DNA from: an uncultured Clostridia bacterium
GTDB lineage: Bacteria > Bacillota > Clostridia > Christensenellales > UBA1242
Assembly: GCA_947589025.1 (NCBI GenBank)
Contig: CANQAY010000001.1
Location: forward strand, 23,419 to 87,418
Reading direction: 5' to 3'
Length of the DNA: 64,000 nt
The notes beneath the pieces were generated by a model. That model worked only from the letters and a program-made list of their open reading frames with translations, was not told the DNA's origin and ran no database searches. This document shows positions 19,820 to 29,448 of this stretch, one piece after another (positions within the stretch are counted from its first letter, which is position 1; each line of letters starts with the position of its first letter). The position numbers were made by a program, and so were the translations under genes.

Positions 19820-22800
19820 ATGGCTGTAAAGACATTAGGAAAATATAATCAATTAACTAAAGAACAACTTGCTGCCGCTAAATTTGAAGATTTAGGCGTT
19901 GTTGTTGAAGGCGACTTTTATCTTCTTAAAGACTTGACCATATATTCAGATGATGGCAACAAGCATATTCAATCACTTAAACAGTTTTTGAATGCAATAA
20001 AAAACAAAAAATATCTAGATAATAAGGATGCGACGCATATTCAAGATAAGATAACAAAAGATGCCAGCGGTAATATCATATTTTATTCACAAAAATTCAA
20101 TTTTGAAGTTTCTGGCAGCCTAATTTCAGATAAATTTTCCCCTGAAGACGATAAGTCGTCTATTGCTCCGGGTTTAAAACGTGCGCTTAAATATGAGCAA
20201 GCGGCGGATGGGCAATATGTTTATGTGCAACTTAAAGGTTTGGATGCGCCAGAGCTTGTGCCTATTAAAGAAATTGGCTATTATGTGGGCAGCAAATTTA
20301 CAACCTGCAAAACATTGGAAGATGTTAAAAATAATACTGACAAAAACTTATTTTTAAGTGGCAAATATAACAACGCCACAGTTAGCGGTGTTTATTTAGA
20401 AGCATATAAGTTTACTGAAATTATAAAGGGTGCCGATGGCAAACCATTGGTGGAAAGTTATTTAACTACAGAAAAGAAAAAGTTAGACCTAGTTTTAAAA
20501 AATGGCACAATAGCAACTGAAGAAAAATCTCTTGCCGACTATAATGTGGCTAGTTATGTTAAAACTGGGGATAAAAGCAGCGTTGCAGTTAAATCTTACA
20601 TGGTTAACACAACTGAAAAGGGTGGCAGTTTTGTAAGGCTTAAATTGCAAGATGAATCTAAAGAAATTATGGTGCCAATTGTATCATTAAGAAAGGTTGA
20701 CAAAGCAGGCAAGCCGTTGGAAGAAGGCATAAAGTTTAAAGACCTTTCAAAATATATTGGCCAAGAAATTGCCGTAAGCATGCAAGATGGCAAATCTGTT
20801 AAAACCAACGCTCTCACACCAGAACAAGCATATGTTTCTTACGATTTAACCATGCACAAACAGCAAACAACTGACAAAGCAGATGTGCTTAAAGACAACA
20901 CTCACTTGCTTTTGGCTAACGGCCAATTTGTTAAAGAAAAGGAAGCTGTTAAGCCAATTTCATACGAATTTGTAAATGACAGTGACGACGATTTTGATGT
21001 TTACATTGTTACTGTAAAATCCAGTTCGGGCGAAAGAGAAGTGGTTGTGGATAAAAGCCTTTTCTTAACTAGACAAAAAGCGGATATCATTTTAAATAAA
21101 GAAGTTGTGTCGGTTAGTGAAGAAAATTCAATTAAAGCTAAAAGATGCGCATACGCACAGGCAGATGCCGTTCAAACCACAAGCAAAGGGGCTAGGGCGG
21201 AACAATGCACCCTTTTGGCAGACAAAAAAAGCCGCGTGAAAAAGAAAAAGGCAGAAAGGGAAGAACTGCTAAACAGTTTGCTTGATGAATTTTTGGCAAA
21301 ATATAAAAATGGCGATTATGCGCTGGATAAATATGTTGATGTTGAAAACGAACTTAAAGAACTTGCAAAATCTAGGCCAGAGCAGTGCAGATATGTTGTG
21401 CAAGATTTTATCTCTCAGCCGGACTATGGCAACAAGTTAAACGAATATGCATTCTTAAAGTCCACAACACTAAGTTGGAACGGAAACAAACTTGTTGGCG
21501 GGCCACAGTATAACGCAATGAAGGCGTATACTAAAGATATTACCACAATTGCAAAAGTATTTTTGCATGTTTTGGTGTTTTCAGTTGGTTGGGGCGGCAT
21601 TTTGTCCGCTGCAATATCTCCATTTATCGTCATTGGCATGTTGTCCGCAGTTGCGGGCGCAATTCCAGCCATGGCAATATTTAGAGCAATTAAAAACGCT
21701 TGGATTGAACGCAAAAATCACGCATTTAAATATAAAGATAAACTTGCCGAACAGCGCAAAGGCGTTAAAAAAGAAATTTTTGAAGAATTAAAACAAATTA
21801 TTGCCGATACAGCAGATAATGAAAATCTTACCACGGCAGTAAAGAAGGATGATAAAACTGCTGCGGACCAAAAACTGATTGAGCAGTGCAAAGCTAAATT
21901 TTTAAATAAATTTGATGAGCTTGAAGCTAGGGCAGCAACCCTTTCCGCAACAGACACAATGTCCGAGTTCCGCATGGTTGATGGCCAAGGCAAAGTTGAT
22001 GACACCAACGCCCATTTGTTCTATCAATATCATGTGGAGATGGAAGAACTTGAAAAACGCGTTAAATACCTTGAAAAACGCAAAGGCAAATTAACTGATG
22101 AAGAAAAAATAGAGCTTGAAAATTCCAGCCAAGAGTTGGAAAGGCGCAAGAAAAACGATGTTGTTGTAGGCCCTACCGTTCCTGAAGATAGTGAATATAA
22201 AAAGATAACCGAACTTTTGGCACAAGTTAAAGGCACAATTTTGGCAAAATATTTTGGCGAAACACCAACTAACAACGCTGAGGCTGAGTTAACTGATGAA
22301 CAAAAAGCAGTGTTAGAGGCATTAAAAGATGCTGAAATTGAAGTAAACGCTCGCAAACACAATGTTAAGTTTTCAACAAAACAAAAAGTAGCAGCATTGG
22401 GTGATAAGAGTTTGGAAGAGGCAATATCCGAAATTATTGCACCTATTGGCAAGCAAGCCCCAGAAGTGTTTGTTGTTGGAGGTGAACCTCTAAAACCTAC
22501 GCGTAAAACACCGTCACCACCAAAATCTCCAACAGAACAACAAAAAAGGAACGAGGAATTGAAAGCCATGACTAATGACCAAATTGAATACATTATTAAA
22601 AAAGTTGCTAAGGCAATGGAAAAATTAAGAGAAATTGGCTCGGGCGTTGGCGCATATGGCAAAAACGATTTGTCTGAAGCGGAAGAAAGTAAAGCAGAAC
22701 AACTTAAAAAAGTGTATGAGGATAACAAATATGTTTTAAAATATTTGGTTGACCATCAAGATTATGTTCAATACAGTGCTTTATATAAGAGATACGCCGC

Positions 22801-22876
22801 AACGATAAATACAATAGGGCTAACTTATAATGAATTTAGAACAGTTGTAGAAAATGCTAGCAGTAGGAGATTATAA
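19820..22876 (+). CDS. Hypothetical 1,018-aa protein: N-terminal repeated beta-rich modules, central TM hairpin, C-terminal coiled coil
   Basis: RBS gaggtg, preceded by an extended -10 (TGTTATAAT). The central hydrophobic stretch is VFLHVLVFSVGWGGILSAAISPFIVIGMLSAVAGAIPAMAIFRAI. The C-terminal half is Lys/Glu-rich and heptad-like. I recognise no family. Confidence 0.85.
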   Translation: MAVKTLGKYNQLTKEQLAAAKFEDLGVVVEGDFYLLKDLTIYSDDGNKHIQSLKQFLNAIKNKKYLDNKDATHIQDKITKDASGNIIFYSQKFNFEVSGSLISDKFSPEDDKSSIAPGLKRALKYEQAADGQYVYVQLKGLDAPELVPIKEIGYYVGSKFTTCKTLEDVKNNTDKNLFLSGKYNNATVSGVYLEAYKFTEIIKGADGKPLVESYLTTEKKKLDLVLKNGTIATEEKSLADYNVASYVKTGDKSSVAVKSYMVNTTEKGGSFVRLKLQDESKEIMVPIVSLRKVDKAGKPLEEGIKFKDLSKYIGQEIAVSMQDGKSVKTNALTPEQAYVSYDLTMHKQQTTDKADVLKDNTHLLLANGQFVKEKEAVKPISYEFVNDSDDDFDVYIVTVKSSSGEREVVVDKSLFLTRQKADIILNKEVVSVSEENSIKAKRCAYAQADAVQTTSKGARAEQCTLLADKKSRVKKKKAEREELLNSLLDEFLAKYKNGDYALDKYVDVENELKELAKSRPEQCRYVVQDFISQPDYGNKLNEYAFLKSTTLSWNGNKLVGGPQYNAMKAYTKDITTIAKVFLHVLVFSVGWGGILSAAISPFIVIGMLSAVAGAIPAMAIFRAIKNAWIERKNHAFKYKDKLAEQRKGVKKEIFEELKQIIADTADNENLTTAVKKDDKTAADQKLIEQCKAKFLNKFDELEARAATLSATDTMSEFRMVDGQGKVDDTNAHLFYQYHVEMEELEKRVKYLEKRKGKLTDEEKIELENSSQELERRKKNDVVVGPTVPEDSEYKKITELLAQVKGTILAKYFGETPTNNAEAELTDEQKAVLEALKDAEIEVNARKHNVKFSTKQKVAALGDKSLEEAISEIIAPIGKQAPEVFVVGGEPLKPTRKTPSPPKSPTEQQKRNEELKAMTNDQIEYIIKKVAKAMEKLREIGSGVGAYGKNDLSEAEESKAEQLKKVYEDNKYVLKYLVDHQDYVQYSALYKRYAATINTIGLTYNEFRTVVENASSRRL

Positions 22877-23002
22877 AGGTAAGGTTGGCAACTTACTTTC
22901 AACTTAATATGTTTTAAGAGTGGGTAATTTACCAATAAGGGTGGAACCGCGGTTATTAAAAAATCGTCCCTTTGCTGTGTTTTTGCACAGCAAGGGCTTT
23001 TT
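22785..23002 (+). promoter_or_regulatory. Glycine-specific T-box leader (riboswitch) with intrinsic terminator
   Basis: AGAGA at 22788-22792 and a GGC specifier followed by A at 22887-22890. A short stem III (GGTA/TACC) lies at 22923-22933. The T-box sequence AAGGGTGGAACCGCGG lies at 22937-22952, with a UGGA bulge that matches the UCCA end of tRNA-Gly. The terminator CCCTTTGCTGTG/GCACAGCAAGGG plus T-run lies at 22968-23002, and its CCCTT can alternatively pair with the T-box AAGGG to form the antiterminator. The 5' boundary is uncertain. Confidence 0.7.
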
Positions 23003-23075
23003 ATGTTATTCAAGGGGCATTTTAAGTTGCTTCCACAAAAAAATTTTTGTTTTGAACGATGGGAACTTCTTACCA

Positions 23076-23447
23076 TGTCATTGCGAGGGCTGTGCCCGTG
23101 GCAATCTCAGAGATTCCCACGCTCACTTCGTTCGCTCGGAATGACATGACACATGTGTCCTTAATAATATAAAAGGGTAAATTCCTCGGTTACGCCCGGA
23201 ATGACATATAGGGGAGAGATTCTTCGGTTACGCCCGGAATGACATATAAGGGAGAGATTCTTCGGTTACGCCCGGAATGACATATAAGGTTGAGATTCCT
23301 CGACTACGCTCGGAATGACATATTTGTCCCCCGACAAAACAATTTTTGTTCTTCGTTCGCTCAGAATAACAGATTTCAACAATTTGTTTTTAACAAGCGG
23401 AAAACTCTTCCTCTGTCATTGCGAGGGCTGTGCTCGCGGCAATCTCA
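23076..23447. repeat. Cluster of REP-like palindromic 34-mers and a tandem array of a ~39-bp unit
   Basis: The 34-mer TGTCATTGCGAGGGCTGTGC(C/T)CG(T/C)GGCAATCTCA occurs at 23076-23109 and 23414-23447, with internal hairpin ATTGC-GA-GGGC-TGT-GCCC-GTG-GCAAT. Units of GAGATTC(T/C)TCGGTTACGCCCGGAATGACATATA start at about 23110, 23178, 23214, 23253 and 23290, and a decayed unit lies near 23345. Confidence 0.85.
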
Positions 23448-23456
23448 AACAAAAAA

Positions 23457-23485
23457 TTGTAAAAAATAAAAATTTATGCTATAAT
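23457..23485 (+). promoter_or_regulatory. Candidate glyQS-proximal promoter with extended -10
   Basis: TTGTAA at 23457-23462, a 17-nt spacer, then TGcTATAAT (TATAAT at 23480-23485). RBS aaggag and ATG 23504 follow. Confidence 0.5.
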
Positions 23486-23503
23486 AAAAAAAGGAGTAAT
23501 TAT

Positions 23504-24868
23504 ATGGGAAATTTTGATAAAATTGTAAATTTATGCAAAAATAGAGGCATAATTTTTCAGGGCAGCGATATTTATGATGGCCTTGCCAACACATGGGATT
23601 ATGGCCCGGTTGGCGTGGAATTAAAAAACAACATTAAGCGCACTTGGTGGAAAAAGTTTGTGCAGGAAAGCGCAAATTCTTTTGGTGTGGATGCGGATAT
23701 TTTAATGCACCCAAAAGTGTGGGAGGCAAGCGGCCATGTTGAAGGGTTTAACGACCCTAAAATTGATTGCAAAAACTGCAAAACCCGTTATGGTGCAGAC
23801 CATTTAATTGAAGATTTTAGCAAGGATAAGGTTAATGCCGACATTATGTCTTTTGCAGAAATGGAACAGTACATTGCCGAACATAAAGTGCCCTGCCCTA
23901 AATGTGGAAAATCTAACTGGACAAATATAAAAACTTTTAATATGATGTTTTCAACTTCGCGTGGCTTAACGGACGAAAACCAAAATTTAATTTATCTTCG
24001 TCCAGAAACTGCGCAAGGTGAGTTCGTAAACTTTTTAAATGTTCAACGCAGTATGCGCGCAAAACTGCCTTTTGGCATTGCGCAAATTGGTAAAGCATTT
24101 AGAAACGAAGTTACGCCGGGCAATTTTACTTTCCGCACAATAGAGTTTGAACAAATGGAACACCAGTGGTTTTGCAAGCCAGAAGATAGCATGAATTTTT
24201 ATGAAGAATTTAAACAAAAAGCGGTTGATTATTTAGTTTCTATTGGTTTTAAACGTGAAAATTTGCGTTATCATGACCACGATAAACTTGCATTTTATGC
24301 TAAAGCTGCATGTGACGTTTATTATAACTTTCCAATAGGTTGGAAAGAATTAAATGGCGTTCATCATAGGGGAGATTGGGATTTATCTCGCCACCAAGAA
24401 TTTAGCGGCAAATCTATGATTTATACCGACCCATTTACAAACGAAAAATATATTCCTAATGTTATTGAATATTCAATTGGTGCGGATAGGCTAACTTTGG
24501 CAGTTTTGTGTGAAGCGTATGACGAGGAAAAACTTCCAGATGGTGACACTCGCGTTGTGTTGCACTTCCACCCAGCAATTGCGCCATATAAGGTTGCCAT
24601 TTTGCCACTGCAAAAGAATTTGGGCGACAAGGCGCGTGAAGTTTACAACGCGCTTGCCAAAAACTTTATGGTAACATATGACGATGCCGGCAGCATTGGC
24701 AAACGCTATCGTCGTCAGGACGAAATTGGCACCCCAATGTGCATAACCATTGATTTCGATACGCTTAATGATAACACCGTTACAATCCGTGACCGCGACA
24801 CAATGGAGCAAATTCGCCTAAACATTAACGGACTTAAAGACTATATTTCTAAGAAAATAGAATATTAA
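23504..24868 (+). CDS. glyQS: Glycine--tRNA ligase (dimeric class II GlyQS)
   Basis: 454 aa starting MGNFDKIVNLCKNRGIIFQGSDIYDGLANTWDYGP, with RPETAQG and FRNE class II motifs. The start is set at ATG 23504 (RBS aaggag). The track's upstream extension to 23315 reads through repeat DNA. Confidence 0.93.
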   Translation: MGNFDKIVNLCKNRGIIFQGSDIYDGLANTWDYGPVGVELKNNIKRTWWKKFVQESANSFGVDADILMHPKVWEASGHVEGFNDPKIDCKNCKTRYGADHLIEDFSKDKVNADIMSFAEMEQYIAEHKVPCPKCGKSNWTNIKTFNMMFSTSRGLTDENQNLIYLRPETAQGEFVNFLNVQRSMRAKLPFGIAQIGKAFRNEVTPGNFTFRTIEFEQMEHQWFCKPEDSMNFYEEFKQKAVDYLVSIGFKRENLRYHDHDKLAFYAKAACDVYYNFPIGWKELNGVHHRGDWDLSRHQEFSGKSMIYTDPFTNEKYIPNVIEYSIGADRLTLAVLCEAYDEEKLPDGDTRVVLHFHPAIAPYKVAILPLQKNLGDKAREVYNALAKNFMVTYDDAGSIGKRYRRQDEIGTPMCITIDFDTLNDNTVTIRDRDTMEQIRLNINGLKDYISKKIEY

Positions 24869-24910
24869 GTGGCGGTTGCCACTTTATTTTTTATTATTTT
24901 TTTATAAAAA

Positions 24911-24944
24911 TGTCATTGCGAGGGCTTTGCCCGTGGCAATCTCA
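24911..24944 (+). repeat. Third copy of the REP-like 34-mer, just downstream of glyQS
   Basis: TGTCATTGCGAGGGCTTTGCCCGTGGCAATCTCA, in the same orientation as the copies at 23076 and 23414. Confidence 0.8.
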
Positions 24945-24976
24945 ACCTTATCAAAAAATCCACTAAAAGTGGATTT

Positions 24977-25420
24977 TTATTTAATGTTAACACTGGCAAT
25001 AATGTCGGTGGCAACTTCTTTAATAAATTGCACTGTAATTTTATATTGCCCGGCGGCTTTTATGGTTGGAAAATCTTTAATCATATTTTTTTCAACCTTC
25101 AAGCCATCGTTATTTAGGGCGGTTAAAATATCCTGTTTTGTAACTGAGCCAAACGCCTTGCCGTTTGCACCAACGTTAAGCGTAAAATTGTAAACCTTAT
25201 TTTTAATTTTGTTGGCAATTGCTTGATACTCTTTAACCATTTCACCATGGTGGAACGCCTGTGCGTCCATCTTGCCTTTATGGTCGTTTAAATTGCTGGC
25301 GGTTGCTTCCACCGCAATGCCTTGTTTAATTAGCACATTGTAGGCGTAGTTTGGGTTAACTTCAATAATATCCCCAGCCTTGCCTTTGCCTTTAAGCTCT
25401 TTTTTTAAAATAACCTTCAT
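24977..25420 (-). CDS. rplI: 50S ribosomal protein L9
   Basis: 147 aa from the internal Met (MKVILKKELKGKGKAGDIIEVNPNYAYNVLIKQGIAVEAT), which matches the L9 N-terminal domain. RBS aaaggaaaa. The longer track ORF adds 17 unsupported residues. Confidence 0.9.
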   Translation of the reverse strand: MKVILKKELKGKGKAGDIIEVNPNYAYNVLIKQGIAVEATASNLNDHKGKMDAQAFHHGEMVKEYQAIANKIKNKVYNFTLNVGANGKAFGSVTKQDILTALNNDGLKVEKNMIKDFPTIKAAGQYKITVQFIKEVATDIIASVNIK

Positions 25421-27042: not shown

Positions 27043-29448
27043 ATGGAATATAACCACAAAAAAATTGAGGCAAAGTGGAAAAAATATTGGGAGGAAAACG
27101 GCACATTTAAAACCGATGTTTGGGATTTTTCTAAACCCAAATATTATGCGTTGGATATGTTCCCATATCCGTCTGGTGCGGGGCTGCACGTTGGCCACCC
27201 GGAAGGCTACACGGCAACAGACATTGTTAGCCGCATGAAACGTATGCAGGGGTATAACGTTTTGCACCCAATTGGCTTTGATTCTTTTGGCTTGCCTGCC
27301 GAGCAATATGCAATAGATACGGGCAATAATCCTGCCGATTTTACAGAAAAAAACATTAAATTTTTTATAGGGCAATTAAAAAACATTGGCTTTTCTTTTG
27401 ATTGGGATAGGATGATAAAAACAAGTTCGCCAGAATATTACAAGTGGACGCAGTGGATATTTAAACAACTTTACGCTAAAGGATTGGCAAAAATTAAAAA
27501 TGTGCCGGTTAACTGGTGTGAGGAATTGGGATGCGTGCTTGCCAATGATGAAGTTATTGATGGCAAAAGTGAGCGCGGCGGCTATCCAGTTGTTAAAAAG
27601 AATATGCTGCAGTGGGTTATAGACACACCTGCCTACGCTGAAAAATTGCTTAATGGATTAAACGAAATTGATTGGCCGGAAAGTACCAAACTTATGCAAA
27701 AAAATTGGATTGGCAAATCGGAAGGTGTGGAAGTTGAATTAAAAATTGTGGGTGGGGGCAAGTTTTCTATTTTTACCACTTGCATTGAAACCATTTATGG
27801 AATAACCTTTATGGTGCTTGCGCCCGAAAACAAATTGGTGGACGAATTAAAACCGCGCATAAAAAATTGGGCAGAAGTTGAGGCCTACAGGCGGGAGACG
27901 GCAAAAAAATCGGATAGAGAGCGCACTGATTTAAACAAGACGAAATCGGGCGTTAAACTGGATGGCATTTTAGCAATTAACCCGGTAAACGGCAAAAAAG
28001 TGCCAATGTTTTTAGGTGATTTTGTGCTATCCAGTTATGGCACGGGCGCAGTTATGGCAGTGCCAAGCCATGACCAGCGTGATTTTGAATATGCCATTGC
28101 GCACAAAATTCCTATGATACAGGTTATTGCTGGGCAAGATGTTAGCAAACAGGCGTTTGAAAAGCAGGATTATTTAGGCAAGGGCTGTAAGTTGATTAAC
28201 AGCGCGGAATTTACCGGCCTTACAGTTGAGCAAGCAAAAACTGCAATAACGGATAAACTCGTTAAAATGGGAGTAGGTAAAAAGCAAGTTAATTACAAGT
28301 TAAGGGAGTGGATTTTTGCCCGCCAGCGTTATTGGGGCGAGCCGATCCCTATTGTGCATTTTGAGGATGGCACAACCCGGGCGGATGACGACAGTCAATT
28401 GCCAGTTGTTTTGCCACAACTTACTGATTACAAGCCAACAAAAGATGGCAGCAGCCCACTTGCGCGGGCAACCAATTGGGTTAATGTTAAAATTGATGGC
28501 AAATCCGCTAAAAGAGAGACCAACACCATGCCGGGCACGGCGGGCTCTAGCTGGTATTTCATGCGCTATATTGACCCAAATAACGACAAAGAATTGGCAA
28601 ACAAACAGTTGTTAAAGCATTGGCTTCCGGTTGACCTTTATGTTGGCGGGCCGGAACATGCGGTAAGCCACTTGTTGTATAGCAGAATGTGGACAAACTT
28701 TTTGTATGATATTGGCGTTAGCCCAGTTAAAGAGCCATTTAAAAAACTTGTGCATCAGGGCATGATTTTGGGTGCAAATGGCATTAAAATGGGCAAAAGA
28801 TATCCAGAATTTGTGGTTGACCCAAATGTTATTGTTGAAAAATATGGGGCGGATACGCTTCGCCTTTACGAGATGTTTATGGGCCCACTTGAAATGAGCA
28901 AACCGTGGGACGAAAACGGCGTTAACGGGGCAAGGAAATTTTTGGATAGAATTTTTAAAATTTACACAGAAAAACTCATTGAAAACACCCAAAACACTAA
29001 TTTAGATTTAATTTATAATCAAACTGTTAAAAAAGTTACGGAAGATTATGAAAGTTTAAACTTCAACACGGCAATAAGCCAAATGATGATTTTTGTAAAC
29101 GCGCTTAGCAAAGAAGAAGTTTTTCCGCGTGATTACGCATTGGGCTTTTTAAAATTGCTTAACCCAATTTGCCCATTTATAACTGAAGAATTGTGGCAGC
29201 AATTGGGCCACAAAAACACCATTGCATATGAAAGTTGGCCAACATTTGACAGCACAAGACTGGTGGAAGATACGGTTGAAATACCAATTCAAGTTAATGG
29301 CAAATTGCGAGGCAAAATTGTGGTTAGCCGCACTGCCACCGAAGCGGAAATTAAAGAAAAAGCGGTGGAAGCAGTAAAAACTTATTTAGTTAACGGATAC
29401 AAAAAAATTATTTATATCCCAAATAGAATTTTTAATATTGTGGTTTAA
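27043..29448 (+). CDS. leuS: Leucine--tRNA ligase
   Basis: 801 aa with the class I HIGH motif (PYPSGAGLHVGHPEGY), a KMSKS-type variant (KMGKRY) and conserved LeuS blocks. RBS aggag. Confidence 0.95.
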   Translation: MEYNHKKIEAKWKKYWEENGTFKTDVWDFSKPKYYALDMFPYPSGAGLHVGHPEGYTATDIVSRMKRMQGYNVLHPIGFDSFGLPAEQYAIDTGNNPADFTEKNIKFFIGQLKNIGFSFDWDRMIKTSSPEYYKWTQWIFKQLYAKGLAKIKNVPVNWCEELGCVLANDEVIDGKSERGGYPVVKKNMLQWVIDTPAYAEKLLNGLNEIDWPESTKLMQKNWIGKSEGVEVELKIVGGGKFSIFTTCIETIYGITFMVLAPENKLVDELKPRIKNWAEVEAYRRETAKKSDRERTDLNKTKSGVKLDGILAINPVNGKKVPMFLGDFVLSSYGTGAVMAVPSHDQRDFEYAIAHKIPMIQVIAGQDVSKQAFEKQDYLGKGCKLINSAEFTGLTVEQAKTAITDKLVKMGVGKKQVNYKLREWIFARQRYWGEPIPIVHFEDGTTRADDDSQLPVVLPQLTDYKPTKDGSSPLARATNWVNVKIDGKSAKRETNTMPGTAGSSWYFMRYIDPNNDKELANKQLLKHWLPVDLYVGGPEHAVSHLLYSRMWTNFLYDIGVSPVKEPFKKLVHQGMILGANGIKMGKRYPEFVVDPNVIVEKYGADTLRLYEMFMGPLEMSKPWDENGVNGARKFLDRIFKIYTEKLIENTQNTNLDLIYNQTVKKVTEDYESLNFNTAISQMMIFVNALSKEEVFPRDYALGFLKLLNPICPFITEELWQQLGHKNTIAYESWPTFDSTRLVEDTVEIPIQVNGKLRGKIVVSRTATEAEIKEKAVEAVKTYLVNGYKKIIYIPNRIFNIVV

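Follow-up and report, generated by a model that had tools for sequence, protein, structure and literature searches.

A reduced glycine T-box derivative that may gate readthrough from an upstream gene into the glycyl-tRNA synthetase gene of an uncultured Clostridia bacterium

The 64-kb window analysed here (the whole stretch taken from contig CANQAY010000001.1 of an uncultured Clostridia bacterium) carries on its forward strand a long open reading frame (ORF), a glycyl-tRNA synthetase (GlyRS) gene and, between the two, a short RNA element at 22876-23002 followed by a spacer filled with repeats. The element is a glycine T-box derivative, whose 3' sensing and switching half is intact and which stays below the threshold of the Rfam T-box model. 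An earlier note, made from the letters of this DNA, had described a 1,018-aa ORF with its stop at 22876 and about 500 bp of repeats after the terminator; the ORF is borne out by direct reading of the stop codon and the repeats by repeat scans. The same note had called the downstream gene glyQS, a name that has to be given up: matches to Pfam and to the NCBIfam models PRK04173 (644 bits) and TIGR00389 identify it as a single-chain dimeric GlyRS, here glyS, and there is no glyQ + glyS pair. The features of the locus are as follows.

19820-22876, forward strand: upstream ORF of 1018 aa, from the ORF list and its translation; stop codon TAA at 22874-22876
22876-22899, forward strand: P1 specifier hairpin, a minimal Stem I, from folds; overlaps the ORF stop codon by one base
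22900-22917, forward strand: single-stranded, AU-rich linker of 18 nt, from alignment A3
22918-22935, forward strand: Stem III with its flanks, by direct reading and with high posterior probability in the Rfam alignment
22938-22971, forward strand: antiterminator, from the Rfam alignment, pair counts and a fold of -9.3 kcal/mol
22968-23002, forward strand: intrinsic terminator, from a terminator scan and folds of -18.3 kcal/mol
23077-23447, forward strand: cluster of palindromes resembling repetitive extragenic palindromic (REP) sequences, from repeat scans
23457-23485, forward strand: predicted proximal sigma-70-type promoter with an extended -10 box, 10/12 consensus matches plus TG
23493-24868, forward strand: Shine-Dalgarno (SD) sequence (GGAG, 23493-96) and dimeric glycine--tRNA ligase gene (ATG at 23504, 454 aa)

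The element opens with P1, a continuous 8-bp stem (AAGGUAAG/CUUACUUU) capped by an 8-nt loop (GUUGGCAA, 22884-22891), 24 nt in total. The loop displays the glycine codon GGC at 22887-22889, followed by A22890, which places the specifier in the terminal loop of a hairpin; there is no GAA S-turn. Beyond the linker lies Stem III (GGUA/UACC, 22923-22933), flanked by GAGUG, of the form RRRxG, at 22918-22922 and by AA at 22934-22935, and then the T-box sequence AAGGGUGGAACCGCGG (22937-22952), which includes the UGGA bulge. In the antiterminator, helix A1 (AGGG/CCCU) is followed by the 7-nt T-box bulge UGGAACC (22942-22948) and by helix A2 (GCGGUU/AAUCGU), with a G22949.U22967 wobble at its base. The UGGA of the bulge is complementary to the 3' UCCA of a tRNA, U73 being typical of tRNA-Gly. 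The terminator has a 12-pair stem (22968-22996) and a U-run (22998-23002). The CCCU at 22968-22971 belongs both to this stem and to helix A1; terminator and antiterminator are mutually exclusive, and the terminator is the more stable of the two (-18.3 against -9.3 kcal/mol). All of the 3' hallmarks that had been noticed in the letters (GGC-A at 22887-22890, Stem III, the UGGA bulge and the antiterminator/terminator switch) are thus found by direct reading where the earlier note had put them. The discriminator of T-boxes has been defined by the order 5'-RRRxG-Stem III-AA-3', the T-box bulge and a G.U wobble at the base of A2 (PMC7583486), and each of these parts is present in the window and invariant across the four lineages introduced below. 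In the linker region, a motif to which we assign no structural role, UUCANNUUAAUA (22898-22909), is identical in all four. A small AU hairpin at 22904-22919 was considered as a remnant of Stem II or of a pseudoknot and rejected, as its pairing breaks in individual lineages.

Starting from the GlyRS protein of the window, which groups with those of uncultured gut Clostridia (Christensenellales-like metagenome-assembled genomes, MAGs), we collected 173 GlyRS loci as a comparison set. Leaders of the kind seen in the window, called the W type here, occur in four lineages: the window itself and the loci L163, L173 and L003, whose GlyRS proteins are 94%, 87% and 86% identical to that of the window (loci L001 and L002 are the window strain). 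Alignment A3 holds these four sequences over about 140 nt, and what is said of covariation in the W type is drawn from these four only. Between lineages the element is 82-91% identical, compared with 61-71% at the third codon positions of GlyRS, about 60% in the last 300 nt of the ORF and about 50%, which is the noise level, in the spacer. P1 is fully paired in all four lineages although four of its eight pairs vary, one of them by a double change from A-U to G-C. Its loop reads G/C-UUGG-C/A-AA, in which UUGGNAA changes only at the third position of the codon, the specifier being GGC-A in the window and GGA-A in L163 and L003, both of which encode glycine. Both specifiers also occur in the canonical Clostridium glycine T-boxes of the locus set, and the glycine T-box of C. 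tetani uses GGA (PMC11404447). Stem III pairs at 94% and shows one double change, helices A1 and A2 are 100% paired and invariant, and the terminator is 92% paired across the W loci, with compensatory CG/UA exchanges; in slid-register controls the pairing falls to 36-62%. The most conserved parts are the flanks of Stem III, the bulge, A1, A2 and the hairpin loop. Since the terminator stem is more variable than these, the opposite of what would be expected of a bare terminator, selection acts on the tRNA-sensing features, and the comparison shows the discriminator and the specifier hairpin to be under clear purifying selection. A covariance model built from the four W sequences gives its own members 142-159 bits and everything else in 0.54 Mb of related loci at most 65 bits; it found neither a second W-type copy in the window nor W-type remnants in the loci without a T-box. 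Weak matches to this model (32-34 bits) lie 5' of GlyRS in two MAGs labelled 'uncultured Bacilli' (L045:2362-2475 and L048:2352-2467), where the T-box core pattern is unmatched and further divergent leaders may be present.

A covariance-model scan had been proposed in the earlier note, which expected Stem I at about 22785-22915, inside or abutting the 3' end of the ORF. We scanned 22400-23600 permissively with Rfam RF00230 (T-box leader; gathering score, 93 bits) and obtained 41.2 bits (E = 2e-7) at 22821-22974. The scan thus recovered the 3' half of the expected structure, and it yielded neither a gathering-score match nor a long Stem I. The alignment is confident only over Stem III, the T-box sequence and the antiterminator, has low posterior probability 5' of 22900, and matches the model's 87-nt Stem I interior with just 28 nt of the window. 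Because it is confined in this way to the 3' half, we take that half to be real and a long, ORF-internal Stem I not to be there: the only Stem-I-like element is the 8-bp hairpin at 22876-22899, and leaders throughout the clade have a truncated Stem I. A canonical Stem I in the tail of the ORF (22785-22875) was rejected for its low posterior probability and its lack of conserved Stem I motifs, and also because the tail differs freely among the four W loci except for the final six nucleotides, which read TTATAA in all of them.

Further leader types are found in the same clade, and the 20 closest loci contain no T-box that reaches the gathering score. In type A (L004, L005, L007-L009, L038, L083 and L166) a TTGACA/TATAAT promoter is present in all but L008, where the ORF adjoins the leader; next come a short base helix and two hairpins, the first of which has GUGGCGA as its invariant 7-nt loop, and after them a IIA/B-type pseudoknot, Stem III and the switch. 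The type A leaders covary strongly: 12 pairs show double changes, none of 500 shuffles reaches the observed score, and the partners of the pseudoknot covary as well (UCUU/AAGA, ACUU/AAGU, GUUC/GAAC, GUAU/AUAC and CCUU/AAGG). Type B (L084, L010, L012, L013, L016, L018, L043 and L101) has the form UGA-N-GGA-AUUGG(C/A)AAC-UCC-N-GAG, that is, a kink-turn (K-turn) base capped by the specifier loop and followed by the pseudoknot, and its hairpin is the first structured element 3' of a clear promoter. Seven relatives scanned with RF00230 (L003-L005, L007-L009 and L038) score 46-52 bits. As the eight scanned leaders, the window included, reach 41-52 bits against a gathering score of 93, standard annotation would miss the glycine T-boxes of this clade; the canonical Clostridium glyS leaders in the locus set, with a full long Stem I and no Stem II, score 95-101 bits. 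The clade combines in its types A and B a truncated Stem I, a specifier in a terminal loop, and Stem II and/or a IIA/B pseudoknot with a transcription terminator. Published accounts describe Stem II as unusual in glycyl T-boxes, and a truncated Stem I for translational Actinobacterial leaders.

The W type shares with types A and B the regulated gene, an identical T-box core and the style of the terminator, and the antiterminator is identical in all W-type and type A leaders. Its hairpin loop resembles type B, whose loop UUGG(C/A)AAC is nearly the same as that of the window (nine nucleotides, UUGGCAACU, are the same as in the type B loop region), and its 3' half resembles type A. In contrast to both, which have their own TTGACA/TATAAT promoter (except L008), a K-turn-like base and the IIA/B pseudoknot, the W type has lost all of these, and also the Stem II that type A retains as a covarying hairpin. 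All four W loci have a constant 51-52 nt between codon and GGGUGG core, which comes near the 44-49 nt of canonical Clostridium glycine leaders without Stem II and differs from type A (76-79 nt) and type B (63-71 nt). A MAFFT alignment (A1) matches the window hairpin to type A's Stem II, and the ORF tail to the Stem I of that type; we treat this as an alignment artefact, since the W loci do not conserve the putative Stem I remnant and the loops are unrelated.

A motif survey 5' of GlyRS found no recognisable T-box core in 117 loci. Among close relatives without a T-box, the ORF adjoins GlyRS in L006 and L169, and only the terminator is left in L164 and L170. In L170-L172 and L164 the space between ORF and GlyRS holds only a terminator-like hairpin (for example GUUCCUAUGCC..GGCGUAGGGCUUUUG, which is like the type A terminator), and no obvious promoter lies 3' of it. 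In a neighbour-joining tree of GlyRS the W loci form one group (bootstrap 70%), in which the window with L163 and L173 with L003 are each supported at 100%; the W loci and the group without a T-box are together supported at 94% and nested among type A lineages. The likely reduction series runs from a promoter-driven type A leader to the W type and, separately in sister lineages, to a terminator remnant and then to nothing. At the W stage the promoter, the K-turn, Stem II and the pseudoknot were likely lost, with the ORF abutting the element and a proximal promoter gained.

The protein encoded upstream gives no match in Pfam and NCBIfam searches; it has a long central hydrophobic segment near residue 600 and charged, lysine- and glutamate-rich, coiled-coil-like regions. 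Homologues lie in synteny 5' of GlyRS in L003 (43% identity), in L007-L009 (about 25%) and also in L163, L164, L166, L169, L170 and L173. It is a fast-evolving protein, its 43% identity between the window and L003 standing against 86% for GlyRS. The gap between the ORF stop and the T-box core is 61-62 nt in all four W loci, compared with 97-198 nt in type A. Inside the ORF the earlier note had seen a candidate promoter, TTGACC at 22749 with TACAGT; the letters are there (22749-22777), and we rejected the candidate because it is not conserved in L163, L003 or L173. With this candidate unconserved and the gap holding no promoter, the simplest assumption is that polymerases reading on from the upstream gene, or starting at an unrecognised promoter inside it, transcribe the element.

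The extended -10 promoter that had been assigned to the synthetase gene itself, together with its SD sequence, is real by its consensus and is kept in three of the four W lineages. It consists of TTGTAA (23457-62), a 17-nt gap, TG (23477-78) and TATAAT (23480-85), giving TGcTATAAT. The motif TGnTATAAT stands 8-10 nt 5' of the SD sequence in the window, L163 and L003, and a degenerate form, TGTTCTATT, in L173, where the terminator is only about 45 nt from the SD sequence. Being common to the window, L163 and L003, this promoter predates the insertion of the REP-like repeats. An in-frame ATG at 23315 extends the GlyRS frame in the 5' direction through the REP-like cluster (23315-24868), and a public NCBI record (P0123) carries a 517-aa version of the protein, which appears to place its start inside the repeats. 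This looks like a misannotated start, since all homologues, the SD sequence at 23493-96 and the ATG at 23504 indicate 454 aa. Elsewhere in the window the leucyl-tRNA synthetase gene (27043-29448), 2 kb downstream, has neither a T-box core nor an Rfam T-box match upstream, so that T-box control is not general for the aminoacyl-tRNA synthetase genes of the window. At Rfam gathering scores the 64 kb yield four tRNAs.

The spacer holds two 33-nt hairpins, GTCATTGCGAGGGCTGTGC..GGCAATCTCA, at 23077-23109 and 23415-23447, and between them an inverted unit (23110-23148), a tandem array of 38-nt units in 3.8 copies (23181-23323) and a degenerate unit (23351-23371). One more copy lies beyond the gene:

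24912-24944, forward strand: third REP-like hairpin copy, between the convergent terminators of GlyRS and rplI

Within about 110 nt (24869-24976) this intergenic region packs the glyS terminator (GTGGCGGTTGCCAC and a T-run), the hairpin and the terminator of the convergent rplI (24977-25420, reverse strand). No REP units were found elsewhere in the window or in the related loci, including L163, whose GlyRS is 94% identical and whose spacer is 222 nt. The comparison with relatives lacking the repeats, suggested in the earlier note, thus shows a strain-specific insertion; we regard the ~500-bp cluster as a recent one and as no part of the switch. From the T-box core to the start codon the distances in the clade are 75 (L166), 88-91, 114, 144, 215, 222 (L163), 256 (L003), 355 (L083) and 565 nt (window), and the spacer is a hot spot for insertions. 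In one type A locus (L083:2230-2500) the interval from the T-box terminator to GlyRS contains an ORF of about 66 aa for a predicted membrane peptide, MENQCKKNIKIALIITGTIFVIGVILLG..., which would be co-regulated by the glycine T-box. The repeats are like REP sequences and bacterial interspersed mosaic elements in being imperfect palindromes of 30-40 nt, in both orientations, clustered, partly tandem, strictly intergenic and beside terminators. REP sequences are typically dispersed over a genome in many copies; in the 64 kb of the window only three intergenic sites are seen, and all of them flank glyS. Compared with shuffled sequences the spacer RNA has an excess of structure (z = -3.64), and the terminator scan predicts no terminator in it. 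A plasmid or mobile-element origin was rejected, as the spacer has no match among the plasmids of PLSDB; CRISPR-like repeats were rejected, as the 38-nt units are contiguous and have no spacers between them; and a coding explanation was rejected, as the ORFs across the cluster (23290-23469, and from 23315 onwards) are repeat sequence.

Taken together, we think it rather probable, though far from certain, that this minimal glycine T-box controls whether transcription of the upstream gene continues into glyS, a basal promoter acting in addition. The element at 22876-23002 would then be a transcription attenuator between two cistrons, and not the head of a leader with its own promoter. RNA polymerase coming from the gene for the 1018-aa protein, or from a promoter inside it, would transcribe the hairpin with the loop codon GGC-A and, some 50 nt on, all parts of the discriminator, from the purine-flanked Stem III to the UGGA bulge and helices A1 and A2. 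Uncharged tRNA-Gly would pair through its anticodon with the loop codon and through its 3' UCCA with the bulge, and this pairing would stabilise the weaker antiterminator and let transcription pass through the REP-filled spacer into glyS. Charged tRNA-Gly could not pair in this way, so that the stronger terminator would form and the upstream transcript would end; basal transcription of glyS would come from the proximal extended -10 promoter. A tRNA-Gly-sensitive terminator for upstream readthrough and action over a long spacer, offered in the earlier note as alternatives, are compatible with each other and jointly come near to this model. The full decoupling that it also considered is not favoured, because of the purifying selection, the absence of a predicted terminator in the spacer, and L173, in which about 45 nt separate the terminator from the SD sequence and the promoter is degenerate.

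Several observations weigh against this model. RF00230 reaches its gathering score nowhere in the window; the K-turn (GA motif) that would form the base of Stem I is missing, the P1 helix being continuous; the AGAGA and GGUGNNA motifs of the elbow platform do not occur upstream in any plausible arrangement; and with only the 18-nt linker between P1 and GAGUG there is neither a Stem II S-turn nor a IIA/B pseudoknot. Published work has it that a truncated Stem I relies on the K-turn and Stem II, and that such RNAs barely bind tRNA when Stem II is missing (PMC7583486). No conserved promoter was identified in the stop-to-core gap among the four W loci, and the strong proximal promoter could dominate glyS expression. 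The shuffle test on the four sequences is modest, 31-48 of 500 shuffles reaching the observed pairing values, and the change between GGC and GGA is uninformative by itself, since any third-position change still encodes glycine. Sister lineages have no T-box (L006, L164, L165, L168, L169 and L170), so T-box control of glyS is dispensable in the clade and the W type could be a stage of decay. Such a decaying remnant, left after the loss of promoter, K-turn, Stem II and pseudoknot, would no longer bind tRNA; it would act as a constitutive terminator for the upstream gene, with glyS transcribed solely from the proximal promoter. The absence of every affinity module (K-turn, elbow platform, Stem II S-turn and IIA/B pseudoknot), the reported need of a truncated Stem I for Stem II (PMC7583486), the repeated loss of the T-box in the clade, with L170 and L164 keeping the terminator only, and the TGnTATAAT promoter in three of the four W loci all speak for it. 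We nevertheless hold it to be unlikely. A plain terminator has no need of Stem III flanks, a UGGA bulge, an A2 wobble or a codon hairpin, and yet these sensing parts are invariant or compensated where neutral sites have diverged by 30-40%, the terminator stem is less conserved than they are, codon and bulge keep a fixed distance of 51-52 nt, and in L173 the proximal promoter is degenerate only. As for the missing modules, the GC-rich pairing of glycine codon and anticodon has been argued to explain glycine T-boxes that have no Stem II (PMC7583486), and glycyl T-boxes without a K-turn have been reported in streptococci (PMC11404447).

A promoter embedded in the element itself would explain why no other is seen, with TTGG(C/A)A as the -35 box, TAnnnT 17 nt further on as the -10 box and a start near 22920. 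An RNA so begun would be reduced to the discriminator (Stem III, antiterminator and terminator) and would sense any uncharged U73-CCA tRNA. The boxes can be read as TTGGCA-17-TATGTT in the window (9/12 matches), TTGGAA-17-TAAATT in L163 and TTGGAA-17-TAAAAT in L003. A correctly spaced -10 box is missing from L173, however, the -10 candidates are weak ones that vary from locus to locus, and motifs such as TTGnnn and TAnnnT are common in AT-rich DNA, the region having 9 promoter-like sites where 3.9 are expected. A start near 22920 would moreover cut off part of the GAGUG flank, and the complementarity that the flanks of the supposed -35 box keep through substitutions would be left unexplained; we regard a switch of this kind as improbable. 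A slightly smaller chance still is given to a regulatory role of the spacer, for instance as a structured 5' untranslated region that affects processing, stability or Rho access of the readthrough RNA. The RNA structure (z = -3.64) and the REP copies on both sides of glyS would fit such a role, but strong structure is expected of any REP cluster, the repeats are absent from all relatives including L163, and the spacers of the clade range from 75 to 565 nt with unrelated content.

The element can be placed among known T-boxes by what it keeps and what it lacks. With the canonical glyQS/glyS T-box (RF00230; B. subtilis, G. kaustophilus, Clostridium) it shares a glycine specifier followed by a purine, the lack of Stem II with a single-stranded linker in its place, the Stem III with RRRxG and AA flanks, the UGGA bulge, the A2 wobble and the strand common to terminator and antiterminator. 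The canonical Stem I, however, has about 85-90 nt and holds the specifier in an internal loop with an S-turn, whereas the window has a plain 24-nt hairpin with the specifier in the terminal loop, and is without the K-turn, the AG bulge and the elbow platform of the distal loops. Canonical Clostridium glyS leaders score 95-101 bits and the window 41 bits; the element of the window has no identified promoter of its own, starts at the stop codon of an ORF and lies 500 nt from the regulated gene. Like the Actinobacterial T-boxes with an ultrashort Stem I (ileS; class II in TBDB; M. tuberculosis, N. farcinica), it has no elbow platform and carries the specifier near the tip of a short helix. The Actinobacterial leaders, though, are isoleucine-specific and translational, acting by sequestration of the SD sequence, and compensate for the missing platform with a Stem II S-turn and a IIA/B pseudoknot; the element in this clostridial window is glycine-specific by its codon, has neither compensating module, and has an intrinsic terminator with the SD sequence 500 nt downstream.

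Structural work on T-boxes has held that tRNA recognition needs either a long Stem I platform or a module of K-turn, Stem II and pseudoknot, and a conserved leader with neither would test how little RNA suffices. We tentatively consider it possible, though not the likelier outcome, that this is a natural T-box working on two short duplexes only, one at the codon in the terminal loop and one at the UGGA bulge, placed directly behind a stop codon and controlling whether transcription of one gene continues into a gene for an aminoacyl-tRNA synthetase. Glycine T-boxes pair strongly through GGC:GCC, which offers a ready explanation of why so reduced a leader might work. If this is true, the two-duplex T-box would be the minimal functional T-box, and the W type together with types A and B would form a natural reduction series from a full riboswitch to its complete loss. 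Across this clade of gut Clostridia, glycine T-boxes below the threshold escape standard annotation. The locus itself illustrates a shift from riboswitch to promoter control, with the acquisition of a proximal promoter, insertions into the spacer and the loss of the switch all seen among close genomes.

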